Below, in pieces: positions 36,942 to 59,914 of a DNA stretch of 64,000 bases. The stretch's first letter is position 1. The number at the start of each line of letters is the position of its first letter. Made by a program: the position numbers and the translations under genes. The notes under the pieces were generated by a model that did not search any database, was not told the origin of the DNA, and saw nothing but the letters and a program-made list of their open reading frames with translations. Location: NCBI GenBank assembly GCA_963663385.2, contig CAXXXD010000002.1, positions 1,344,001-1,408,000 on the forward strand. The letters run 5' to 3'. Source of the stretch: Oceanispirochaeta sp. Its GTDB lineage: Bacteria > Spirochaetota > Spirochaetia > DSM-2461.

Positions 36942-37075
36942 CCCCTCTCCCTCTGGGAGAGGGGATTAAGGGGTGAGGGTTTAACCAGCCAGTTCCCTCT
37001 GGGAGAGGGGATTAAGGGGTGAGGGTTAACCAGCCAGTTCCCTCTGGGAGAGGGGATTAAGGGGTGAGGGTTTAA
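36942..37075 (+). repeat. Tandem array of 45-46 bp units built on a hairpin-plus-mirror (triplex-type) motif; third unit interrupted by the IS and resumes at 38753
   Basis: CCCCTCTCCC-TCT-GGGAGAGGGG-ATTAA-GGGGTGAGGG at 36942-36979; unit CCCTCTGGGAGAGGGGATTAAGGGGTGAGGGT(T)TAACCAGCCAGTT starts at 36949, 36995 and 37040. Confidence 0.92.
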
Positions 37076-38748
37076 CCCGCATTTCTCACCAGCTTTTTAA
37101 CTAAAAAAGGATTTCCCATGTTAAAGTATTTGTAGCCAAACAATTACTTTACGCTAAAAGGAAATCCTATATGAATACAAAGTGTAAATGTGAACAGCTG
37201 GAATTTCAAGGGTTCGGAAGAAGAAAAATCGTCATTAAAAATGACGGGAAGATGAACACTACCGATGGCGGTTATCTACTACTTCAGCAGATTGAGCGAA
37301 AACACGGCATAATAAGTCACTTGGCGGATTGTTTTTCAGATTCCAGAGAACAGTACCGGGTTAAGCATACTTTAAAAGGATTGTTAACACAGCGGATTTT
37401 CGGGATTTGCCAGGGGTATGAAGATCTGAATGATCATGATCATTTACGAGAAGATCCGCTGCTGCAGTATGTGTGCGGAAAGGTAAAATCTCCCGTAGCC
37501 GGCAAGAGTACTCTGAACCGACTTGAGCTTGGTCTGGAGCCGGATGAAAGTGATGATCGATACAGCAAGATCACATGGAATGAGCAAGAGATAGAGGATC
37601 TATTCTGCGACTTGTTTTTGGATAGCCTGAAAGAGGCTCCGGATTCTCTGATTCTGGATTTTGATGCTACCGATATTCCCATCCATGGAGACCAGGCCAA
37701 CAAGTTTTTTCATGGTTACTATGATCACTACTGTTACCTTCCTTTGTACGTGTTCTGTGGGGATTTTCCACTTGCTGCAAAGCTCAGGCCATCCAATATC
37801 GATGCCTGTAAAGGCACCGAAGAGATACTGGAGAGACTTGTAAGAAAAATCAGGGAACGATTTCCGAATGCAAATATCATCTTCCGTGGAGATTCAGGCT
37901 TTTGTCGCGACAGTATCCTGAATACCTGCGAGTCCCTGAATATTGAATATGTCGTTGGTATGGGAAGAAATGATCGTCTTTTGGATAAGATAACCTGGCA
38001 AATGATCGAGACATCGAGAATTTATCAAGAGACAAAAGAACCAGCACGTGTTTTCACACGGTTTCCCTATCGAACGAAGACAAGTTGGAGCTGTGAGCGT
38101 CAGGTCGTAGCCAAGGCAGAGCATCTTCCCCGAGGTCGGAATCCCCGCTTTATTGTTACGAATATTTCAGCTGAAAAATGGGATGATAAATCGCTGTATG
38201 AACAGCTATACTGTGCTCGTGGTGACATGGAGAATCGTATTAAAGATCAGCAACTGGACATGTTTGCAGACAGAACATCATCGTGGTGGATGAGTTCCAA
38301 CCAGCTTCGCCTTTGGTTCTCTGCCATTGCTTATATTTTCTTCGTATATCTGCAACAGATTATCCGCAGAGTAACAGGGGATGATATAAAACGTATACCC
38401 TCTACTATAAGGCTGAAATATCTGAAAGTTTCCGCTGCTGTAAGGATAACAGTCCGGAATGTATGGGTAAGTCTACCGGAGAGTTTCCCGTACTGGGATA
38501 TCTGGATTAAAACATCGCAGGCATTCTGAATCAAGAATAATATCCAATGTATTTCTCATCGTTATTTTGAAGGGTATTGTATGCCGGAAGAATCGGTTTA
38601 AATCAGAAAAAGTGTAAAAATATAGAACAATTCAGAAATTGAAAAGTCAAAAAAAATGATTTGTATTATGAAATGGTTATACCAGGTATAGAAGGCAACA
38701 AAAAGTCTTCATTTTTATACCCGGTTCATAGCTGGTGAGAAATGCGGG
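37076..38748 (+). mobile_element. IS1380-family insertion sequence, 1673 bp, apparently intact
   Basis: Perfect 19-bp terminal IRs CCCGCATTTCTCACCAGCT (37076-37094 and 38730-38748); TTAA target duplication (37072-37075 and 38749-38752); single transposase ORF. Confidence 0.93.
37171..38529 (+). CDS. IS1380-family DDE transposase
   Basis: TTDGG, GYEDLNDH..LREDP, LDFDATD..HGDQ, FRGDSGF, YCARGDMENRIKD. Confidence 0.92.
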   Translation: MNTKCKCEQLEFQGFGRRKIVIKNDGKMNTTDGGYLLLQQIERKHGIISHLADCFSDSREQYRVKHTLKGLLTQRIFGICQGYEDLNDHDHLREDPLLQYVCGKVKSPVAGKSTLNRLELGLEPDESDDRYSKITWNEQEIEDLFCDLFLDSLKEAPDSLILDFDATDIPIHGDQANKFFHGYYDHYCYLPLYVFCGDFPLAAKLRPSNIDACKGTEEILERLVRKIRERFPNANIIFRGDSGFCRDSILNTCESLNIEYVVGMGRNDRLLDKITWQMIETSRIYQETKEPARVFTRFPYRTKTSWSCERQVVAKAEHLPRGRNPRFIVTNISAEKWDDKSLYEQLYCARGDMENRIKDQQLDMFADRTSSWWMSSNQLRLWFSAIAYIFFVYLQQIIRRVTGDDIKRIPSTIRLKYLKVSAAVRITVRNVWVSLPESFPYWDIWIKTSQAF

Positions 38749-47900: not shown

Positions 47901-48097
47901 GCGGTCTGGAAGTAACCGACCGGATCAGAATCTATCTCACCGGTTCGGAGAAGGTGAAAGAGGCTGTCGAAGCTTTTGAAGACCATCTTCTTCAGGAAAC
48001 TCTGGGGGACAAGTGGTTCTGGGAAGACAAGGCGGATGCCCTGTCTATCAGCTGCGGTGAAGATGAAAACTGTCGTCTCGCACTGGAAAAAGTTTGA
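44963..48097 (+). CDS. ileS: Isoleucine--tRNA ligase (type 2)
   Basis: DGPPFATGLPHFGH, GWDCHGLP, WTTTPWTL, WAISRNRYWG, KMSKS; AGGAGA RBS, TTG start. Confidence 0.97.
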   Translation: MYTPVDPRVSFPEMEEAIMKFWEEQNIFEKSITQRDGAEDFVFYDGPPFATGLPHFGHFVPGTLKDIIPRYQSMKGKRVERRFGWDCHGLPVEYEMEKELGISGKTEIEKFGVARFNESCRSIVLRFTGEWRQVITRMGRWVDFDNDYKTMETDYMESIWWVVKSLWDKGLIYKGHYILPTCPRCSTPLSNHELNLGGYKDVNDPAITIKFKQLDEENTWFLAWTTTPWTLISNLALTLGDEIDYVKVKDGDENYILAKERLSAYYKSEEDYEILWTKKGKELTGLSYEPIFPYFKERAEEGAFKTFTGEHVTIEDGTGIVHTASGFGEEDYAVLKDTGITVVCPVDDEGKFTKEVPTYEGRFVKDCDKDIIARLKEEGKLVKRDQILHSYPHCWRCSSPLIYKAVGSWFVDIGKVKEKMLNANNQINWVPEHLQKGRFGKWLENARDWAISRNRYWGNPIPIWECDECGKQECIGSRAELKEKSGTEVEDLHKHFVDDITYQCTCGRGTMKRIPEVLDCWFESGSMPYAQVHYPFENKEWFEKNFPARFICEGLDQTRGWFYTLTILAASLFDSPAFENVVVNGLVLASDGKKMSKSLRNFTDPMEVINNFGADALRLFLMNSAVVRAEGLKYSDDGVKEVLKSIIIPLWNSYSFFVTYANIDEAKPGEAPVNPENPLDRWILSESSHLVEAVTEQLDAYDIQKAIEPIINFIDLLNNWYIRRSRRRFWKSENDGDKMQAYGTLWSALMTLVKVASPFIPFVTEEIYRNLKTDDMPESIHLCDYPVADGDVRDRILERKMDLTQQAVSMGRALRSMHNLKTRQPLKALHLVTRDVEEKKILKEMAEIIEEELNVKDVIFRDNEEDLVEYSVKANFRVLGKQLGKDMKAAAAKIAELSSGEIISLMDGNTLTVDFEGAQHKSVEITRESVVINRSEKENLKVLNEGALTVALDPEITDELYKEGVVRDVVRSIQNLRKESGLEVTDRIRIYLTGSEKVKEAVEAFEDHLLQETLGDKWFWEDKADALSISCGEDENCRLALEKV

Positions 48098-49080
48098 ACT
48101 TGAGTAATGCGGCCCGGGGGATTTTCCTTCGGGCTTTTTTCAGCCTCTGGGCGGCTGCCCTGTTTCTGGCATCCTGTACAACCCGCCCCGTTCTGCCGGA
48201 AGATGAGGTCGATCCCACTGTATTTCTCCCTGAAGGAGAGGATTTCTATCTCTTAACCCGTCCTGCGGAGCATCGGGAGCTGATACGGGACTTTGTACGG
48301 ATTTTCGTTGAAGCTGATCCCTCCTCGCTGGACAGTGCCCTTGGTCGTACCGAGGAAGCTGTATTCAGCGGAAAGTTTTCAGATCCTGATGCAATACCCG
48401 TAGAAAACACAGATAATCCCATATTCGTGCTGGAAGATCAGTCTCTGCCGCCCCTGAGCGGTCAGGTAAGGGGCGATTTCCCGGCTTTCTTTCTCCGCTC
48501 CTCCCTGCGCGGGGAGGAGGGATGGGAAAAGGCCGGCCGCTATCGCTTTAAAGGACCGGGGGATCTGCTGGTGGATACAGCCTTTAAGGATACCCTCCTG
48601 ATCGGAACGGATACGTCCCGTCTGGAAATCTTATCAGGAAAGATCTCCGGTGAGACAAGGGCTGAGTCTTTCAGTTCCGGTCAGCTTCCGTCCGGATCAG
48701 CCGAATGGTGGGGGGGGGGGATTCCCGCCCTGATGGTGTATATCCCCGTTTTAAACTCTCTGCCCCTGCCGGACAGTCTTCCTGCTGTTCCCGAGGGTGC
48801 TTCAATGGAAGCCGTTCTTACCGAAACAGTCAGTCCGGATTTCTCACTCCGTCTCTATAATCTGGAGATGGCTCTGGAATTCCCGGATTCCCGCAGTGCG
48901 CGCCTCTGGTCTCTGGGGGTCCGTCTATTTCTGGCTGCCCGCCTTGGGCTTTCGGATGTGGAAGAGGAGCAGGCTTCCCTGCGGAATATTTCACTGAAAA
49001 CGGAAGAGAATGTTCTATATCTTAACGGATGGGTTATGAGTTCCGATACCTGGGGCAGGTTTATCGGGTCTTTCCGGTGA
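48094..49080 (+). CDS. Putative lipoprotein
   Basis: Hydrophobic N-terminus with lipobox LASC; overlaps the ileS stop; contains an in-frame G11 tract. Confidence 0.65.
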   Translation: MNLSNAARGIFLRAFFSLWAAALFLASCTTRPVLPEDEVDPTVFLPEGEDFYLLTRPAEHRELIRDFVRIFVEADPSSLDSALGRTEEAVFSGKFSDPDAIPVENTDNPIFVLEDQSLPPLSGQVRGDFPAFFLRSSLRGEEGWEKAGRYRFKGPGDLLVDTAFKDTLLIGTDTSRLEILSGKISGETRAESFSSGQLPSGSAEWWGGGIPALMVYIPVLNSLPLPDSLPAVPEGASMEAVLTETVSPDFSLRLYNLEMALEFPDSRSARLWSLGVRLFLAARLGLSDVEEEQASLRNISLKTEENVLYLNGWVMSSDTWGRFIGSFR

Positions 49081-49086
49081 CATCTC

Positions 49087-49182
49087 CCGAACCTCCCCCA
49101 TCCCCTCCTCAGGAGGGGTGCAACCTTCCAGTTACATCTCCCCTTAAGGGGAGACTGAGAGGGGTCCGGAGACCGAGAGGGG
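49087..49182. repeat. Left direct-repeat copy: doublet of two triplex-type motifs flanking the DUF559 gene
   Basis: 49087-49173 is identical (87 bp) to 49665-49751; contains CCTCCCC-CAT-CCCCTCC-TCA-GGAGGGG and TCTCCCC-TTAA-GGGGAGA-CTG-AGAGGGG. Confidence 0.93.
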
Positions 49183-49581
49183 ACTGGCCGAGGAGCTCAT
49201 ATTACTAAGTTTTCGTTCAATTCGCATTATTACAGACTTAGGATTACTGATAACATCGCTATTGGTAAATCGAATAACCTCATATCCCAGCTCATTAAGT
49301 CTTTCAGTGCGCAGCAAATCCTGTTCTCTCTGATTTCTATGGATTTCTCCATCAATTTCAATAATGAGCTGTATGCGTAGACAAACAAAATCAACTATGT
49401 ATTGATCAATAATATGTTGTCTTCTGATTCTATAGCCGCATTTCTTATTTCTTAAATATTCCCACATTATACGTTCTGCTGTAGTCGGATTTTTTCTTTG
49501 CTGCTTTTGAAGTTCTCTCAGCTGTTCGTATATGGACTTCTTTGCAGTTATATAAGGTGGCTTAACTCGTTCTTTGTACAT
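49144..49581 (-). CDS. DUF559 (Vsr-like, PD-(D/E)xK) endonuclease-domain protein
   Basis: RKNPTTAERIMWEYLR, RRQHII..YIVDF, IIEIDGEIH, DLLRTERL..GYEVIRFTN; AT-rich relative to neighbours; stop codon lies in the repeat palindrome. Confidence 0.9.
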   Translation of the reverse strand: MYKERVKPPYITAKKSIYEQLRELQKQQRKNPTTAERIMWEYLRNKKCGYRIRRQHIIDQYIVDFVCLRIQLIIEIDGEIHRNQREQDLLRTERLNELGYEVIRFTNSDVISNPKSVIMRIERKLSNMSSSASPLSVSGPLSVSP

Positions 49582-49664
49582 ATAGAATCTTACATGTAAT
49601 AATTTTTTTCTGATTCAAATATTATTGATAAAATTGCAATGTCTTGAACTGGAAATCCTTAAGG

Positions 49665-49871
49665 CCGAACCTCCCCCATCCCCTCCTCAGGAGGGGTGCA
49701 ACCTTCCAGTTACATCTCCCCTTAAGGGGAGACTGAGAGGGGTCCGGAGACTGAGAGGGGTTCGGAGACTGAGAGGGGTTCGGAGACTGAGAGGGGTCCG
49801 GAGACTGAGAGGGGTTCGGAGACTGAGAGGGGTTCGGAGACTGAGAGGGGTCCGGAGACCGAGAGGGGTCC
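49665..49871. repeat. Right direct-repeat copy plus 8 x 18-bp tandem array GGAGAC(T/C)GAGAGGGGT(T/C)C
   Basis: Units start at 49728, 49746, 49764, 49782, 49800, 49818, 49836 and 49854. Confidence 0.93.
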
Positions 49872-49932
49872 CTTGCCACCGGACAACCATTTCTATATTC
49901 TTATATGTATCTCTGAATAGAAAGGTAATAAT

Positions 49933-50538
49933 ATGATTGGTGTGGTGGATTACGAAGCGGGTAATCTGAAAAGTGTTGAGACCGCTCTGGCTTTTGTGGG
50001 TGCGGATTTCTTTATTTCATCCGATCCCGACAAACTCTCACAGGCTGATAAACTGATCTTTCCTGGTGTGGGAGAGGCTGCGGCAGCCATGAAAGTATTG
50101 AAAAACTCCGGTCTGGACCGGGTTCTGGTGGATTTCGCAGCAGCGGGAAAACCTCTTTTCGGCATCTGTCTGGGGAGTCAGATCCTCTTTGAATATTCCG
50201 AGGAATCGGATACAACCTGTCTGGGGATACTGCCCGGACAAGTCCGGCAGTTTTCTTCAGGGATGGGACTGAAAATCCCCCATATGGGATGGAATACCCT
50301 GAAACACAGCAACCACCCCCTTTTTAAAGATATACCTCAGGATAGTTCCTTCTATTTTGTCCACTCCTACTATGTGGAGGTATCTTCCCCTGACTATGTT
50401 ATAGGCACAAGTGATTACGGAATCGAATTTACAGCTGCCGTAGCCAGAGGCAATGTTATGGCCACCCAGTTTCACCCCGAAAAGAGCGGGGAGTGGGGAC
50501 TGAAAATCCTGGAAAACTTTATGGATCTGGAGGTATAG
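49933..50538 (+). CDS. hisH: Imidazole glycerol phosphate synthase glutaminase subunit
   Basis: [39 protein letters not shown]. Confidence 0.95.
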
Positions 50539-51778: not shown

Positions 51779-51881
51779 GATGTATTTATCAGGGCAATTC
51801 TGTAGAGACGGGTTTTGAATCAAGACCCCTCTCGATCTCCTCTGGTTGCATAGGCGAGTCGGCAGCATACTCGAGCAGTAA

Positions 51882-52031
51882 ACGAAGTTTACGACCAGAG
51901 CAGGAAGCCTGCTTCCGACCAGCCCCTCATGGGGAGAGGTAGTCAAGTTTGTATTTTTCGAACCGTTATCAATCTCTACATAAGAGAGATCCAAGACATT
52001 TTCCCCTCATGAGGAGGGGATTAAGGGGAGG
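51882..52031. repeat. Composite intergenic repeat: 56-bp element plus triplex-motif doublet with a 65-bp spacer
   Basis: 51882-51937 is 54/56 identical to 59736-59791; CCCCTCA-TGA-GGAGGGG-ATTAA-GGGGAGG at 52003-52031. Confidence 0.85.
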
Positions 52032-53228
52032 TCACACCTTTGCTTCCCGCTCCACACCGTTCGCCGGGAAGAACTCTCTATCCGCCTTTTCTTCTGCCTG
52101 TTTGAGGACTTCTTTCATTCCTTCAATAGTTTTCCAGTCCTCCTGAGTCTGCTTCAGGTCGGGTTTTACTTCCGGATGAGCAGGCGAAAAGAGGGCACAG
52201 CAGTCGTCGAAGGGTTGAATCGAAGTTTCAAAGGCTCCGATCTTCCGGGATATAAGAATGGTTTCCTCCTTGTCCATTCCGATAAGGGGGCGAAAAACAG
52301 GCAGCTCTACAGAGCTGTTGGTATAGCAAAGGCTCTCCAGGGTCTGACTGGCCACCTGACTTAAGGCCTCTCCTGTTATAAGACAGAGATCATCCCGTTT
52401 CCTTGCAATAGACTGGGCTATCTTCATCATGGCCGCCCGTGAGTGCAGGGTGGTTGTCTCCGGTCTGACCGAACGGTTGATCAGCACCTGAACATCCGTA
52501 AAAGGCACAGTATAGAGTGTTATGCCGCAGCACCAGGGGGCGATAATCCGAGCCAGATCCCGTACCTTTTCCAGAGACTCGGGGCTGGTGTAGGGGGGCG
52601 TGTGGAAATAGACCGCATCCAGAGTCATCCCCCTTTTGGCCATCAGGTAACCGGCTACAGGAGAGTCGATCCCCCCCGACAGGAGGAGCATCCCTTTTCC
52701 GGCGCTGTGCACAGGGAGACCTCCCGCTCCCTTATGGGTATAACCGTAGACGTACCCCTTTTCCCGCAGCTCCACATGTACCACCCAGTCCGGGTTTTTC
52801 ACATCCACTTTTGTTTCGGGGAAAGCTTCCAGTATACGCCCTCCCAATTCGGCAGAGTAGCCGTAGTTGTCCATGGGCAGGCTCTTGTCCACCCGTCTTG
52901 TATTGACTTTAAATGTTATTCCATTACCGGCATCCAGATTCTGTTTTGCCACCAGAATGGCCTTTTCCGCCAGCTGTTCCAGCTCTTTGGCGCAGCTGTA
53001 GGAGCGGGTAAAACCGGTTATACCGAATACCTTGCTTAAACAGGATGTCACATATTCATCGCTTAACCCTTCCGTTTCCAGATAGAAACGGCCGGAGCGG
53101 ACGGTTACACGGGAGGGATGGGGCCGGAGAATCTTTTTTATATTATTTTTAAGCTGTCTTTCAAAGAGAGCCTTGTTGCCTTTTTTCAGGGCGATTTCCC
53201 CGATTTTGATCAGATATAATTCACTCAT
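52032..53228 (-). CDS. thiI: tRNA 4-thiouridine(8) synthase
   Basis: GEIALKKGN, THUMP region, GGLPV, LLLSGGIDSPVA (PP-loop), TGEALSQVASQT, RPLIGMDK, DCC. Confidence 0.93.
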   Translation of the reverse strand: MSELYLIKIGEIALKKGNKALFERQLKNNIKKILRPHPSRVTVRSGRFYLETEGLSDEYVTSCLSKVFGITGFTRSYSCAKELEQLAEKAILVAKQNLDAGNGITFKVNTRRVDKSLPMDNYGYSAELGGRILEAFPETKVDVKNPDWVVHVELREKGYVYGYTHKGAGGLPVHSAGKGMLLLSGGIDSPVAGYLMAKRGMTLDAVYFHTPPYTSPESLEKVRDLARIIAPWCCGITLYTVPFTDVQVLINRSVRPETTTLHSRAAMMKIAQSIARKRDDLCLITGEALSQVASQTLESLCYTNSSVELPVFRPLIGMDKEETILISRKIGAFETSIQPFDDCCALFSPAHPEVKPDLKQTQEDWKTIEGMKEVLKQAEEKADREFFPANGVEREAKV

Positions 53229-59735: not shown

Positions 59736-59839
59736 ACGAAGTTTACGACCAGAGCAGGAAGCTTGCTTCCGACCAGCCCCTCAAGGGGAGAAGTCATTTA
59801 TATGACTCCCCTCCTGAGGAGGGGCAGGGGGAGGTCCGG
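59736..59839. repeat. Composite intergenic repeat: 56-bp element plus triplex-motif doublet with a 16-bp palindromic spacer
   Basis: CCCC-TCAA-GGGGAGA, AGTCAT-TTAT-ATGACT, CCCCTCC-TGA-GGAGGGG-CAG-GGGGAGG; reverse-orientation relative of the 49-kb doublet. Confidence 0.88.
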
Positions 59840-59894: not shown

Positions 59895-59914
59895 GGAGGG
59901 GATGGGGGAGGTTC
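59895..59914. repeat. Partial triplex-motif copy
   Basis: GGAGGGGATGGGGGAGGTTC is the exact reverse complement of 49089-49108. Confidence 0.75.

Follow-up and report, generated by a model that had tools for sequence, protein, structure and literature searches.

In a 64,000-nucleotide stretch of an Oceanispirochaeta genome (the window), a small nuclease gene of the DUF559 family is enclosed by two nearly identical repeats, each composed of a pair of triplex motifs, and DUF559 genes and such motifs occur together within this genome, among its relatives and across several phyla. We propose that DUF559 is the partner nuclease of the motifs, and that both spread through cutting or nicking followed by host recombination. 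From the sequence evidence, we put the probability of this reading at roughly 0.45. It follows up an original prediction, made from the window alone, that DUF559 recognizes or nicks the repeats and propagates them as an autonomous unit plus non-autonomous copies. That interpretation is partly supported overall; recognition of the motif, nicking, excision and triplex formation in vivo remain predicted. To our knowledge, no role has been assigned to the very large DUF559 family, and we know of no enzyme or mode of spread assigned to triplex-motif repeats. The genome amounts to 5.3 Mb in four contigs (C1 to C4), is labelled G000 in comparisons, and carries the window at C2:1344001-1408000.

A DUF559 gene between two repeat doublets

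The DUF559 gene (49144-49581, minus strand) encodes a Vsr-like protein of 145 amino acids with the PD-(D/E)xK fold. The protein matches PF04480 (E 2.7e-32; 111.3 bits against a curated cut-off of 20.6) over profile positions 3-108 of 109, and also matches a solved 'endonuclease-like protein' (PDB 3hrl, E 2e-17). Residues D64, E75, D77, H81, R91, R104 and N107 are conserved, and the first four of these, which we take to be the catalytic (active-site) residues of the family, are invariant among 14 sequences. As had been described, the gene is AT-rich (GC 0.33-0.35, versus 0.55-0.57 in its flanks) and lies antisense between a lipoprotein-like open reading frame (ORF; 48094-49080, plus strand, with zero Pfam matches) and its right neighbour, hisH (49933-50538, plus strand).

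Direct repeats at 49087-49182 and 49665-49760 bracket the gene. They had been reported as perfect repeats of 87 bp, 578 bp apart. The spacing of 578 bases is correct and the first 87 bases of both copies are indeed identical, but the repeat itself is longer, with 95 of 96 bases identical and the sole mismatch at 49174 versus 49752. On the plus strand, each copy consists of a pyrimidine tail CCGAACCTCCCCC, hairpin A (CCCCTCC-TCA-GGAGGGG), an 18-base spacer, hairpin B (TCTCCCC-TTAA-GGGGAGA), and one or more purine mirror tails GAGAGGGG. Both stems have 7 bases, and each arm is preceded or followed by its own mirror image. The doublet is therefore made of two opposed hairpin-plus-mirror-tail motifs, as originally claimed; the near-palindromy ascribed to the spacer is, on reading, restricted to its outer six bases (5/6). 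In the left copy, the pyrimidine tail occupies 49087-49099, hairpin A 49102-49118 and the spacer 49119-49136, and the right half (49137-49182) holds hairpin B (49137-49154) and purine mirror tails at 49157-49164 and 49175-49182. In the right copy, hairpin A lies at 49680-49696 and hairpin B at 49715-49732. There the purine mirror tails of hairpin B are reiterated as an 18-base tandem array, GGAGACTGAGAGGGGTYC (49728-49871), so that the right copy runs into 8.0 units and the left copy holds two.

Gene and repeat overlap. The left copy encodes the last approximately 12 codons of DUF559 (C-terminal tail PLSVSGPLSVSP) and, just as the original prediction had it, the TAA stop (TTA at 49144-49146 on the plus strand) sits at the centre of the hairpin B palindrome, within the loop. 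At the other end, an AT-rich leader (49582-49664, minus strand) separates the right doublet from the start codon. A promoter is presumed in this leader; a scan of the DUF559 locus for consensus promoters and terminators, leader included, gave no convincing site. The sequence ATATTTGAATCAGAA is common to this leader and to that of the tandem DUF559 copies described below.

The 18-base palindrome of hairpin B is found twice in the window, compared with 0.06 times expected, and two matches occurred in none of 100 shuffles. A chance origin is rejected by these shuffles, by the 332 polypyrimidine/polypurine hairpins genome-wide as against 34 in a block shuffle, and by the 69 matches to the motif pattern introduced below as against 0 in a backwards control. 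The folding energy of the single-stranded doublet is no better than that of same-composition shuffles (z -0.52), two hairpins still being predicted. The two flanking copies are 99% alike and the best solo relatives 88-91% alike, and the likeness of the flanking copies points to recent duplication or ongoing conversion. Two further ideas about the repeats were set aside. At the left boundary, TTCCGGTGACATCTCCC resembles the junction of spacer and hairpin B (15/17), which is at about chance level in a 2-kb self-comparison (an estimated ~0.3 expected). An integron attC reading was dropped since, on reading the sequence, no integrase was noticed nearby and no attC-type imperfect palindrome was seen.

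Triplex motifs have gone by the older names PIT and BoxC, the latter dating from the early 1990s. The symmetry that led to the repeats being called triplex motifs in the original prediction is real, and what had gone unrecognized there is that they belong to a published class. In Holder (2015, PMC4666352), class II intrastrand triplex motifs are defined by three blocks, with stems of 6-15 and loops of 1-6. The gene-strand sequence CCCCTCC-TGA-GGAGGGG-AT-GGGGGAGG and, on the plus strand, hairpin B with its tail GAGAGGGG both have this form, and judged by sequence the repeats are G/C-rich class II intrastrand triplex motifs. Like the motifs of that class, they consist of a pyrimidine arm, a loop, a purine arm, a short loop and a mirror purine arm, are G/C-rich, mostly intergenic and present in many copies, often form inverted pairs, and vary between related genomes. 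According to the same paper (PMC4666352), triplex-motif repeats occur in hundreds of bacterial genomes, and its TMECO pattern, CCCTCNCCC N3-6 GGGNGAGGG N3 GGGNGAGGG, is proteobacterial and present in 262 genomes, whereas the present motifs come from a spirochaete. They do not fit the strict TMECO pattern. The stems of the doublets (CCCCTCC, TCTCCCC) have 7 bases rather than the 9 of CCCTCNCCC, and a second motif type, near the TMECO pattern and arrayed in tandem at 36942-37077 (45-base period, 2.8 units), has 9-base stems but a second loop of 5-6 bases.

Association of DUF559 with triplex motifs

Five DUF559 genes occur in the genome, at three loci: the window, a tandem of three at C2:527.9-529.6 kb (66-68% identical to the window protein), and one at C3:420 kb (46%). 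A tblastn search of the genome found no DUF559 gene fragments beyond these five. Just upstream of all five genes lie hairpin B and then hairpin A, with order and orientation always the same. Elsewhere there are 14 other hairpin pairs with a spacing of 250-1500 bases; in the 5 whose ORFs were read (with no Pfam run), no second case was noticed, leaving DUF559 as the sole small AT-rich gene seen to be so bracketed. The tandem locus consists of a doublet plus DUF559 unit three times over, closed by a fourth doublet, with 635-650 base spacing and 98-99% likeness; the unit is thus amplifiable, as had been suggested.

Motifs are also abundant away from the gene. A strict hairpin expression with pure arms and perfect pairing found 49 sites and missed most copies. 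Oriented hairpin-plus-tail matches number 102 in the genome and collapse to 83 loci, many of them in doublets. Nuclease-less relatives of the window doublet, predicted at 51.9 and 59.8 kb, are indeed found at approximately 51824-52033 (hairpin B CCCCTCATGGGGAGAGG; hairpin A with tail 52003-52031) and 59777-59839 (hairpin B 59777-59793; hairpin A with tail 59808-59834), the latter next to a half motif, GGAGGGGATGGGGGAGGTTC, at about 59895-59914. Solo doublets measure approximately 90-105 bases and have inverted ends CCGRACC...GGTYCGG, or, in another subfamily, 13-base ends. This second subfamily of about eight copies (C1:98159, C1:169497, C1:203127, C2:61754, C2:407113, C2:805253, C2:1843915 and C4:402895) keeps the same 14-base spacer and, as its outer inverted repeat, the 13-base CCCTCTCCCGGCC/GGCCGGGAGAGGG, and the likeness stops at these ends. 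These doublets were therefore copied whole, and did not arise by decay independently of one another. No clear target-site duplication was seen at six solo copies.

The original prediction called for a search for an empty site between the lipoprotein gene and hisH, and relatives provide it. Three same-genus genomes keep the gene order with motif-free spacers of about 105 (G010), 130 (G003) and 205 bases (G007), compared with 852 bases in the window genome, where homology with G010 resumes near 49886. Compared with these three relatives, the entire 0.8-kb block is inserted. Since they are distant (their lipoproteins are 42-54% identical), the order of insertion events cannot be read.

Insertion is seen more directly in restriction-modification genes of four other spirochaete genomes (G055, G142, G078 and G126). 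Here a DUF559 domain with flanking hairpins lies in frame inside HsdS (loci L036 and L056), HsdM (L037 and L038), HsdR (L055) or a type ISP enzyme (L042), and the Pfam domains of the host protein are split. All six long-frame DUF559 matches that were scanned with Pfam were embedded in this way, a seventh (L043, G150) being unscanned. The two hsdM genes (L037:1400-2090 and L038:1420-2080, the latter on the minus strand) are about 90% alike outside their inserts and carry the cassette at different codons, each insert being bounded by outer motif tails. The site that the cassette occupies in L038 (after ...TYHAWR) is filled in L037 by an insert of about 105 bases that lacks the nuclease and ends in a motif. 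The hsdM inserts, with their motif-tail ends, are direct evidence that the cassette, bounded by motifs, inserts as a discrete unit. The sequences on either side of the L037 cassette, TCTCGCGCCGAA and TCTCGTGCCAAC, form an imperfect direct repeat of 12 bases (9/12), possibly a decayed target duplication.

We compared the occurrence of gene and motif in 31 related genomes, G000 included. Motifs were counted with the pattern CCCTCYN{2,12}RGAGGGN{1,8}GGGNGAGG, which was derived from this genome and sees G/C-rich motifs only. Full-length DUF559 was defined by an E-value below 1e-45 against a profile from 14 short DUF559 proteins. The pattern matched 69 times in G000, 20 in G012, 18 in G007, 14 in G003 and 12 in G027; of the remaining genomes, G023 has 3 matches (backwards control 4), G004 has 2, G008 and G026 have 1 each, and 22 have none. 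Full-length short DUF559 is present only in G000, G003, G007, G012 and G027, and a single-protein search agrees; partial domain matches occur in G009 (inside a 1181-codon frame) and G030 (weak). A lack of DUF559 from repeat-rich genomes, named in the original prediction as telling against it, is thus not seen: the five genomes with at least 12 motifs are the five that carry the full-length short gene, and the other 26 have at most 3 motifs. Within the genus, presence of gene and motifs is patchy (3 of 11 genomes, including G000). In a class-wide sample of 151 genomes, 20 match PF04480, and all three genomes with at least 8 motifs (G000, G027 and G063) have a short DUF559. In G078 and G142 only one or two motifs were found, and these are directly beside the DUF559 domain.

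The association extends to other phyla. When one genome per species was scanned, at least 588 confirmed DUF559 relatives emerged, and the flanks of the best 80 were analysed with a composition-blind detector of hairpins having one pyrimidine and one purine arm. These 80 are at most 58% identical to the window protein and come mostly from Bacteroidota, with a few from Anaerolineae, Nostoc, an alphaproteobacterium and a Desulfobacterales. At least one hairpin lies within 250 bases of the gene at 69 of the 80 loci. Hairpin density is 3.8/kb in the 250 bases before the gene and 2.3/kb in the 250 after it, compared with about 0.1/kb further out, where values up to 3 kb span approximately 0.05-0.4/kb; the near-gene density is about 40 times background. 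An outward-tailed motif is found upstream in 52/80, downstream in 52/80 and on both sides in 38/80, which is the usual layout; subtracting the gene from it leaves a solo doublet. Covariation of nuclease and motif, another expectation of the original prediction, is also seen. On a FastTree phylogeny of 86 proteins (79 rows labelled), motif class changes 26 times, compared with 34-46 times in 300 shuffles, and this tree signal shows that nuclease lineage and motif type are inherited together. The joint presence of gene and repeats in several phyla makes the enzyme the likely missing partner that would copy the repeats.

Possible mechanism and alternative explanations

In the mechanism we envisage, the Vsr-like DUF559 nuclease would cut or nick the motif in its folded or duplex form, and host recombination at the break would copy the gene-bearing unit and nuclease-less doublets to new sites. 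The direct-repeat bracket would most simply result from recombination between doublets, either because a unit of gene plus one doublet entered a solo doublet or through unequal exchange. Direct repeats would then allow the 578-base unit to loop out, to re-enter another doublet or to amplify. The 18-base array may have grown by slippage of the mirror tails. Solo doublets would be non-autonomous copies, which is suggested by the approximately eight copies that keep the 14-base spacer and terminal inverted repeats. Because DUF559 has a hydrolytic PD-(D/E)xK fold and is not an HUH enzyme, a break followed by host repair is more plausible than cut-and-paste. Precedents within the fold are Vsr, a repair nickase (PMC1189080, PMC3424549), and the homing endonuclease I-Bth0305I, which belongs to the Vsr/DUF559 clade (PMC3424549).

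Several results weigh against this proposal. Solo motifs are not clustered near DUF559 genes (4 within 25 kb versus 2.2 expected); within 200 kb there are 15 versus 17.4 expected, and local hopping is thus unsupported. Two solo subfamilies, the ATTAAGGGAGG type and the TMECO-like type, are without a cognate gene in the genome. The layout in the window, where the gene has an entire doublet on either side and the tails point towards it, is in the minority, a full upstream doublet being found at 4 of the 80 loci; one of the four, L064 from a Prolixibacteraceae metagenome-assembled genome, matches the window in both stems, TCTCCCC and CCCCTCC. Co-inheritance alone would yield the tree signal, so recognition is not thereby proved. 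The co-occurrence statistic among relatives is overstated, since these genomes are related to one another and the window genome itself supplied the pattern. There are also individual discrepancies: G113 has 2 motifs and no DUF559 was found in it, G075 has a DUF559 with hairpins of only 5-6 base stems and 0 pattern matches, and one G003 copy of DUF559 (L013, with an internal stop) has no nearby hairpin. The Pfam genome search was silent on an E. coli control although strain K-12 carries the DUF559 gene ycjD, so the search overlooks some genes where it reports 'no match', unless the control strain happens to be without ycjD. Finally, no cleavage, circle or excision product was seen. The four public runs that cover 48700-50300 provide contigs only, which break at the repeats. 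One, X7, bridges 48729-49608; X1, a mangrove metagenome with approximately 88-92% likeness, covers the lipoprotein end, hairpin B with the 3′ end of the gene, and hisH, with no joining contig. Contig joints (49118 to 49726, and opposite-strand ones) are explainable by other copies of the repeat and are silent on excision either way.

The association could instead be that of a passenger, the motifs being fragile, recombination-prone spots that trap DNA, and DUF559 a foreign gene caught there, which arrived jointly with them by horizontal transfer and whose enzyme is inactive on the motifs. Being AT-rich, the gene looks foreign, and outside the genus it finds its best matches in Bacteroidota, at no more than 58% identity; Holder (2015, PMC4666352) ties the motifs to local rearrangement in E. 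coli. However, the association is specific, both in the hairpins at 69 of 80 DUF559 loci and in DUF559 being the only small AT-rich gene noticed between hairpins among the pairs read in this genome. Moreover, the motifs have a fixed position with outward tails, abutting start and stop, and nuclease lineages only 46-68% identical all retain them. We therefore regard this explanation as unlikely. We give slightly less credit still to a host function, in which DUF559 would be a repair or defence nuclease acting on hairpins, triplexes or mismatches, the motifs would be regulatory or RNA-stabilizing, and solo motifs would spread by other means. Such a role would suit the Vsr nickase of the same fold (PMC1189080, PMC3424549), weak matches to nuclease domains of the anti-phage proteins ProA and Hhe, the DUF559 domains inside type I and type ISP restriction genes at six loci, and the purine arm GGAGG that many cassettes carry 11-60 bases ahead of their start codon. 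In the window, though, the motif is about 85 bases from the start codon, and a host function leaves unexplained both the presence of solo motifs only in gene-bearing genomes and the discrete insertion of the cassette with motif ends.

Another candidate for moving the doublets is a Y1 (IS200/IS605-type) transposase of the genome, with DUF559 uninvolved. This is how repetitive extragenic palindromic (REP) sequences and their inverted doublets (REPINs) relate to the REP-associated tyrosine transposase (RAYT), and the original prediction drew an analogy to that system. The analogy is sound in layout, as in both cases an enzyme gene in one or few copies is flanked by repeats that are scattered as inverted doublets and patchy among relatives. 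It fails in enzyme chemistry, since RAYT is an HUH Y1 transposase with covalent DNA intermediates and DUF559 has a hydrolytic PD-(D/E)xK fold; the repeats also differ, REP sequences being palindromes and those here polypurine/polypyrimidine mirror motifs. Besides the REPIN-like layout, what favours a Y1 enzyme is the presence of five PF01797 (Y1) genes in the genome, and of Y1 genes in 4 of the 5 motif-rich genomes. Yet the gene flanked by triplex hairpins is DUF559, such hairpins are beside none of the five Y1 genes, and 2 of 4 scanned Y1 loci are flanked by a different inverted repeat, GGGACGGAGG. Across the 31 genomes, 10 of which have Y1, G012 has 20 motifs and no Y1 match, and conversely G008, G010, G015, G019, G021 and G025 have Y1 genes and 0-1 motifs. 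Movement of the doublets by Y1 is thus very improbable.

Two other kinds of mobile element share features with the DUF559 cassette. Like a homing gene, DUF559 in this cassette would be a small selfish nuclease gene, present or absent at a given site, whose spread could rely on breakage and repair and need no transposase; filled and empty alleles are found here too (the site is empty in the distant relatives G010, G003 and G007), and the Vsr-fold homing endonuclease I-Bth0305I (PDB 3r3p; PMC3424549) is in the same structural clade as DUF559. Unlike homing genes, DUF559 is in no intron or intein, its flanks are repeats instead of the halves of a unique target, and many nuclease-less copies exist. 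Solo doublets are small and have terminal inverted repeats, as do miniature inverted-repeat transposable elements (MITEs), and look like the cassette minus its gene. What sets them apart from MITEs is that a target-site duplication is not clearly visible and that no transposase from a known family goes with them.

A broader claim, of which we are less confident than of the partnership itself, is that DUF559 and triplex motifs together constitute a new class of mobile element, in which a Vsr-fold nuclease would read folded polypurine/polypyrimidine DNA and break-induced copying would spread the element within genomes and between phyla. If so, the nuclease gene and nuclease-less doublets of about 100 bases would be spread, even in frame into restriction-modification genes, the BoxC/triplex-motif repeats and the DUF559 family would both be given a function, and there would be a nuclease-driven, transposase-free way of spreading repeats, with a natural protein that may read non-B DNA. 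The direct-repeat tandem form would suit a simple assay of copy number or circles of the 578-base unit, and the E. coli K-12 locus would suit genetics. Our literature search, whose coverage excluded subscription journals, returned no paper linking DUF559 to triplex repeats. In Holder (2015, PMC4666352), 'DUF559' and 'endonuclease' have 0 occurrences, and its authors never found mobility functions nearby.

The E. coli locus and further observations

The DUF559 gene ycjD of E. coli K-12, next to fabI, resembles the window gene in that the loop of a CCCTCTCCC hairpin holds its stop codon, and about 160 bases downstream there is a complete TMECO motif. It differs in that no upstream motif or direct-repeat bracket was seen. 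The window protein scores 66.7 bits against the YcjD model NF007294, below its cut-off of 218. E. coli is patchy for ycjD, with 3346 of 5426 genomes holding at least 80% of the region; strains without ycjD beside fabI have the eef operon there, a junction uninformative on mechanism. Between ycjD and the TMECO motif of K-12 (L142, 3290-3420) we noticed a partial second 3′ end of ycjD (…GGAGACGGTGCTGGAGAATATTC…), as if a duplicated unit had decayed.

DUF559 was found on 33 of 72,556 plasmid records, most of which are replicons of very large size, and in 0 phage records at an E-value of 1e-8 or better. In G078 (L060, C390, 113-913), a short DUF559 gene has a hairpin pair (CCTCCCCC.., CCCTCCCC..) three times before it and once after it. 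With a spacing of about 105 bases, these pairs make another direct-repeat tandem form like that of the window.

The density of motif loci is 23-24 per Mb on C1 and C2, approximately 2.5 times that on C3 and C4 (8.5-10 per Mb). Members of the solo subfamily with 13-base ends have a three-stem shape, RAA closes the left flank of 5 of the 6 copies read, and a cognate DUF559 is absent from the genome. Another small repeat (…ACGAAGTTTACGACCAGAGCAGGAAGC[CT]TGCTTCCGACCAG) interrupts or precedes the 5′ part of hairpin B at 51840-51925 and 59740-59776. Two Y1 genes, L021 (C4:803924-804262) and L022 (C2:1217534-1217866), are bracketed by GGGACGGAGG...CCTCCGTCCC and look like a separate pairing of the REP/RAYT type. 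Lastly, the lipoprotein-like ORF beside the DUF559 gene contains a run of 11 G at 48706-48727 (codons WWGGG), a candidate slipped-strand on/off tract.

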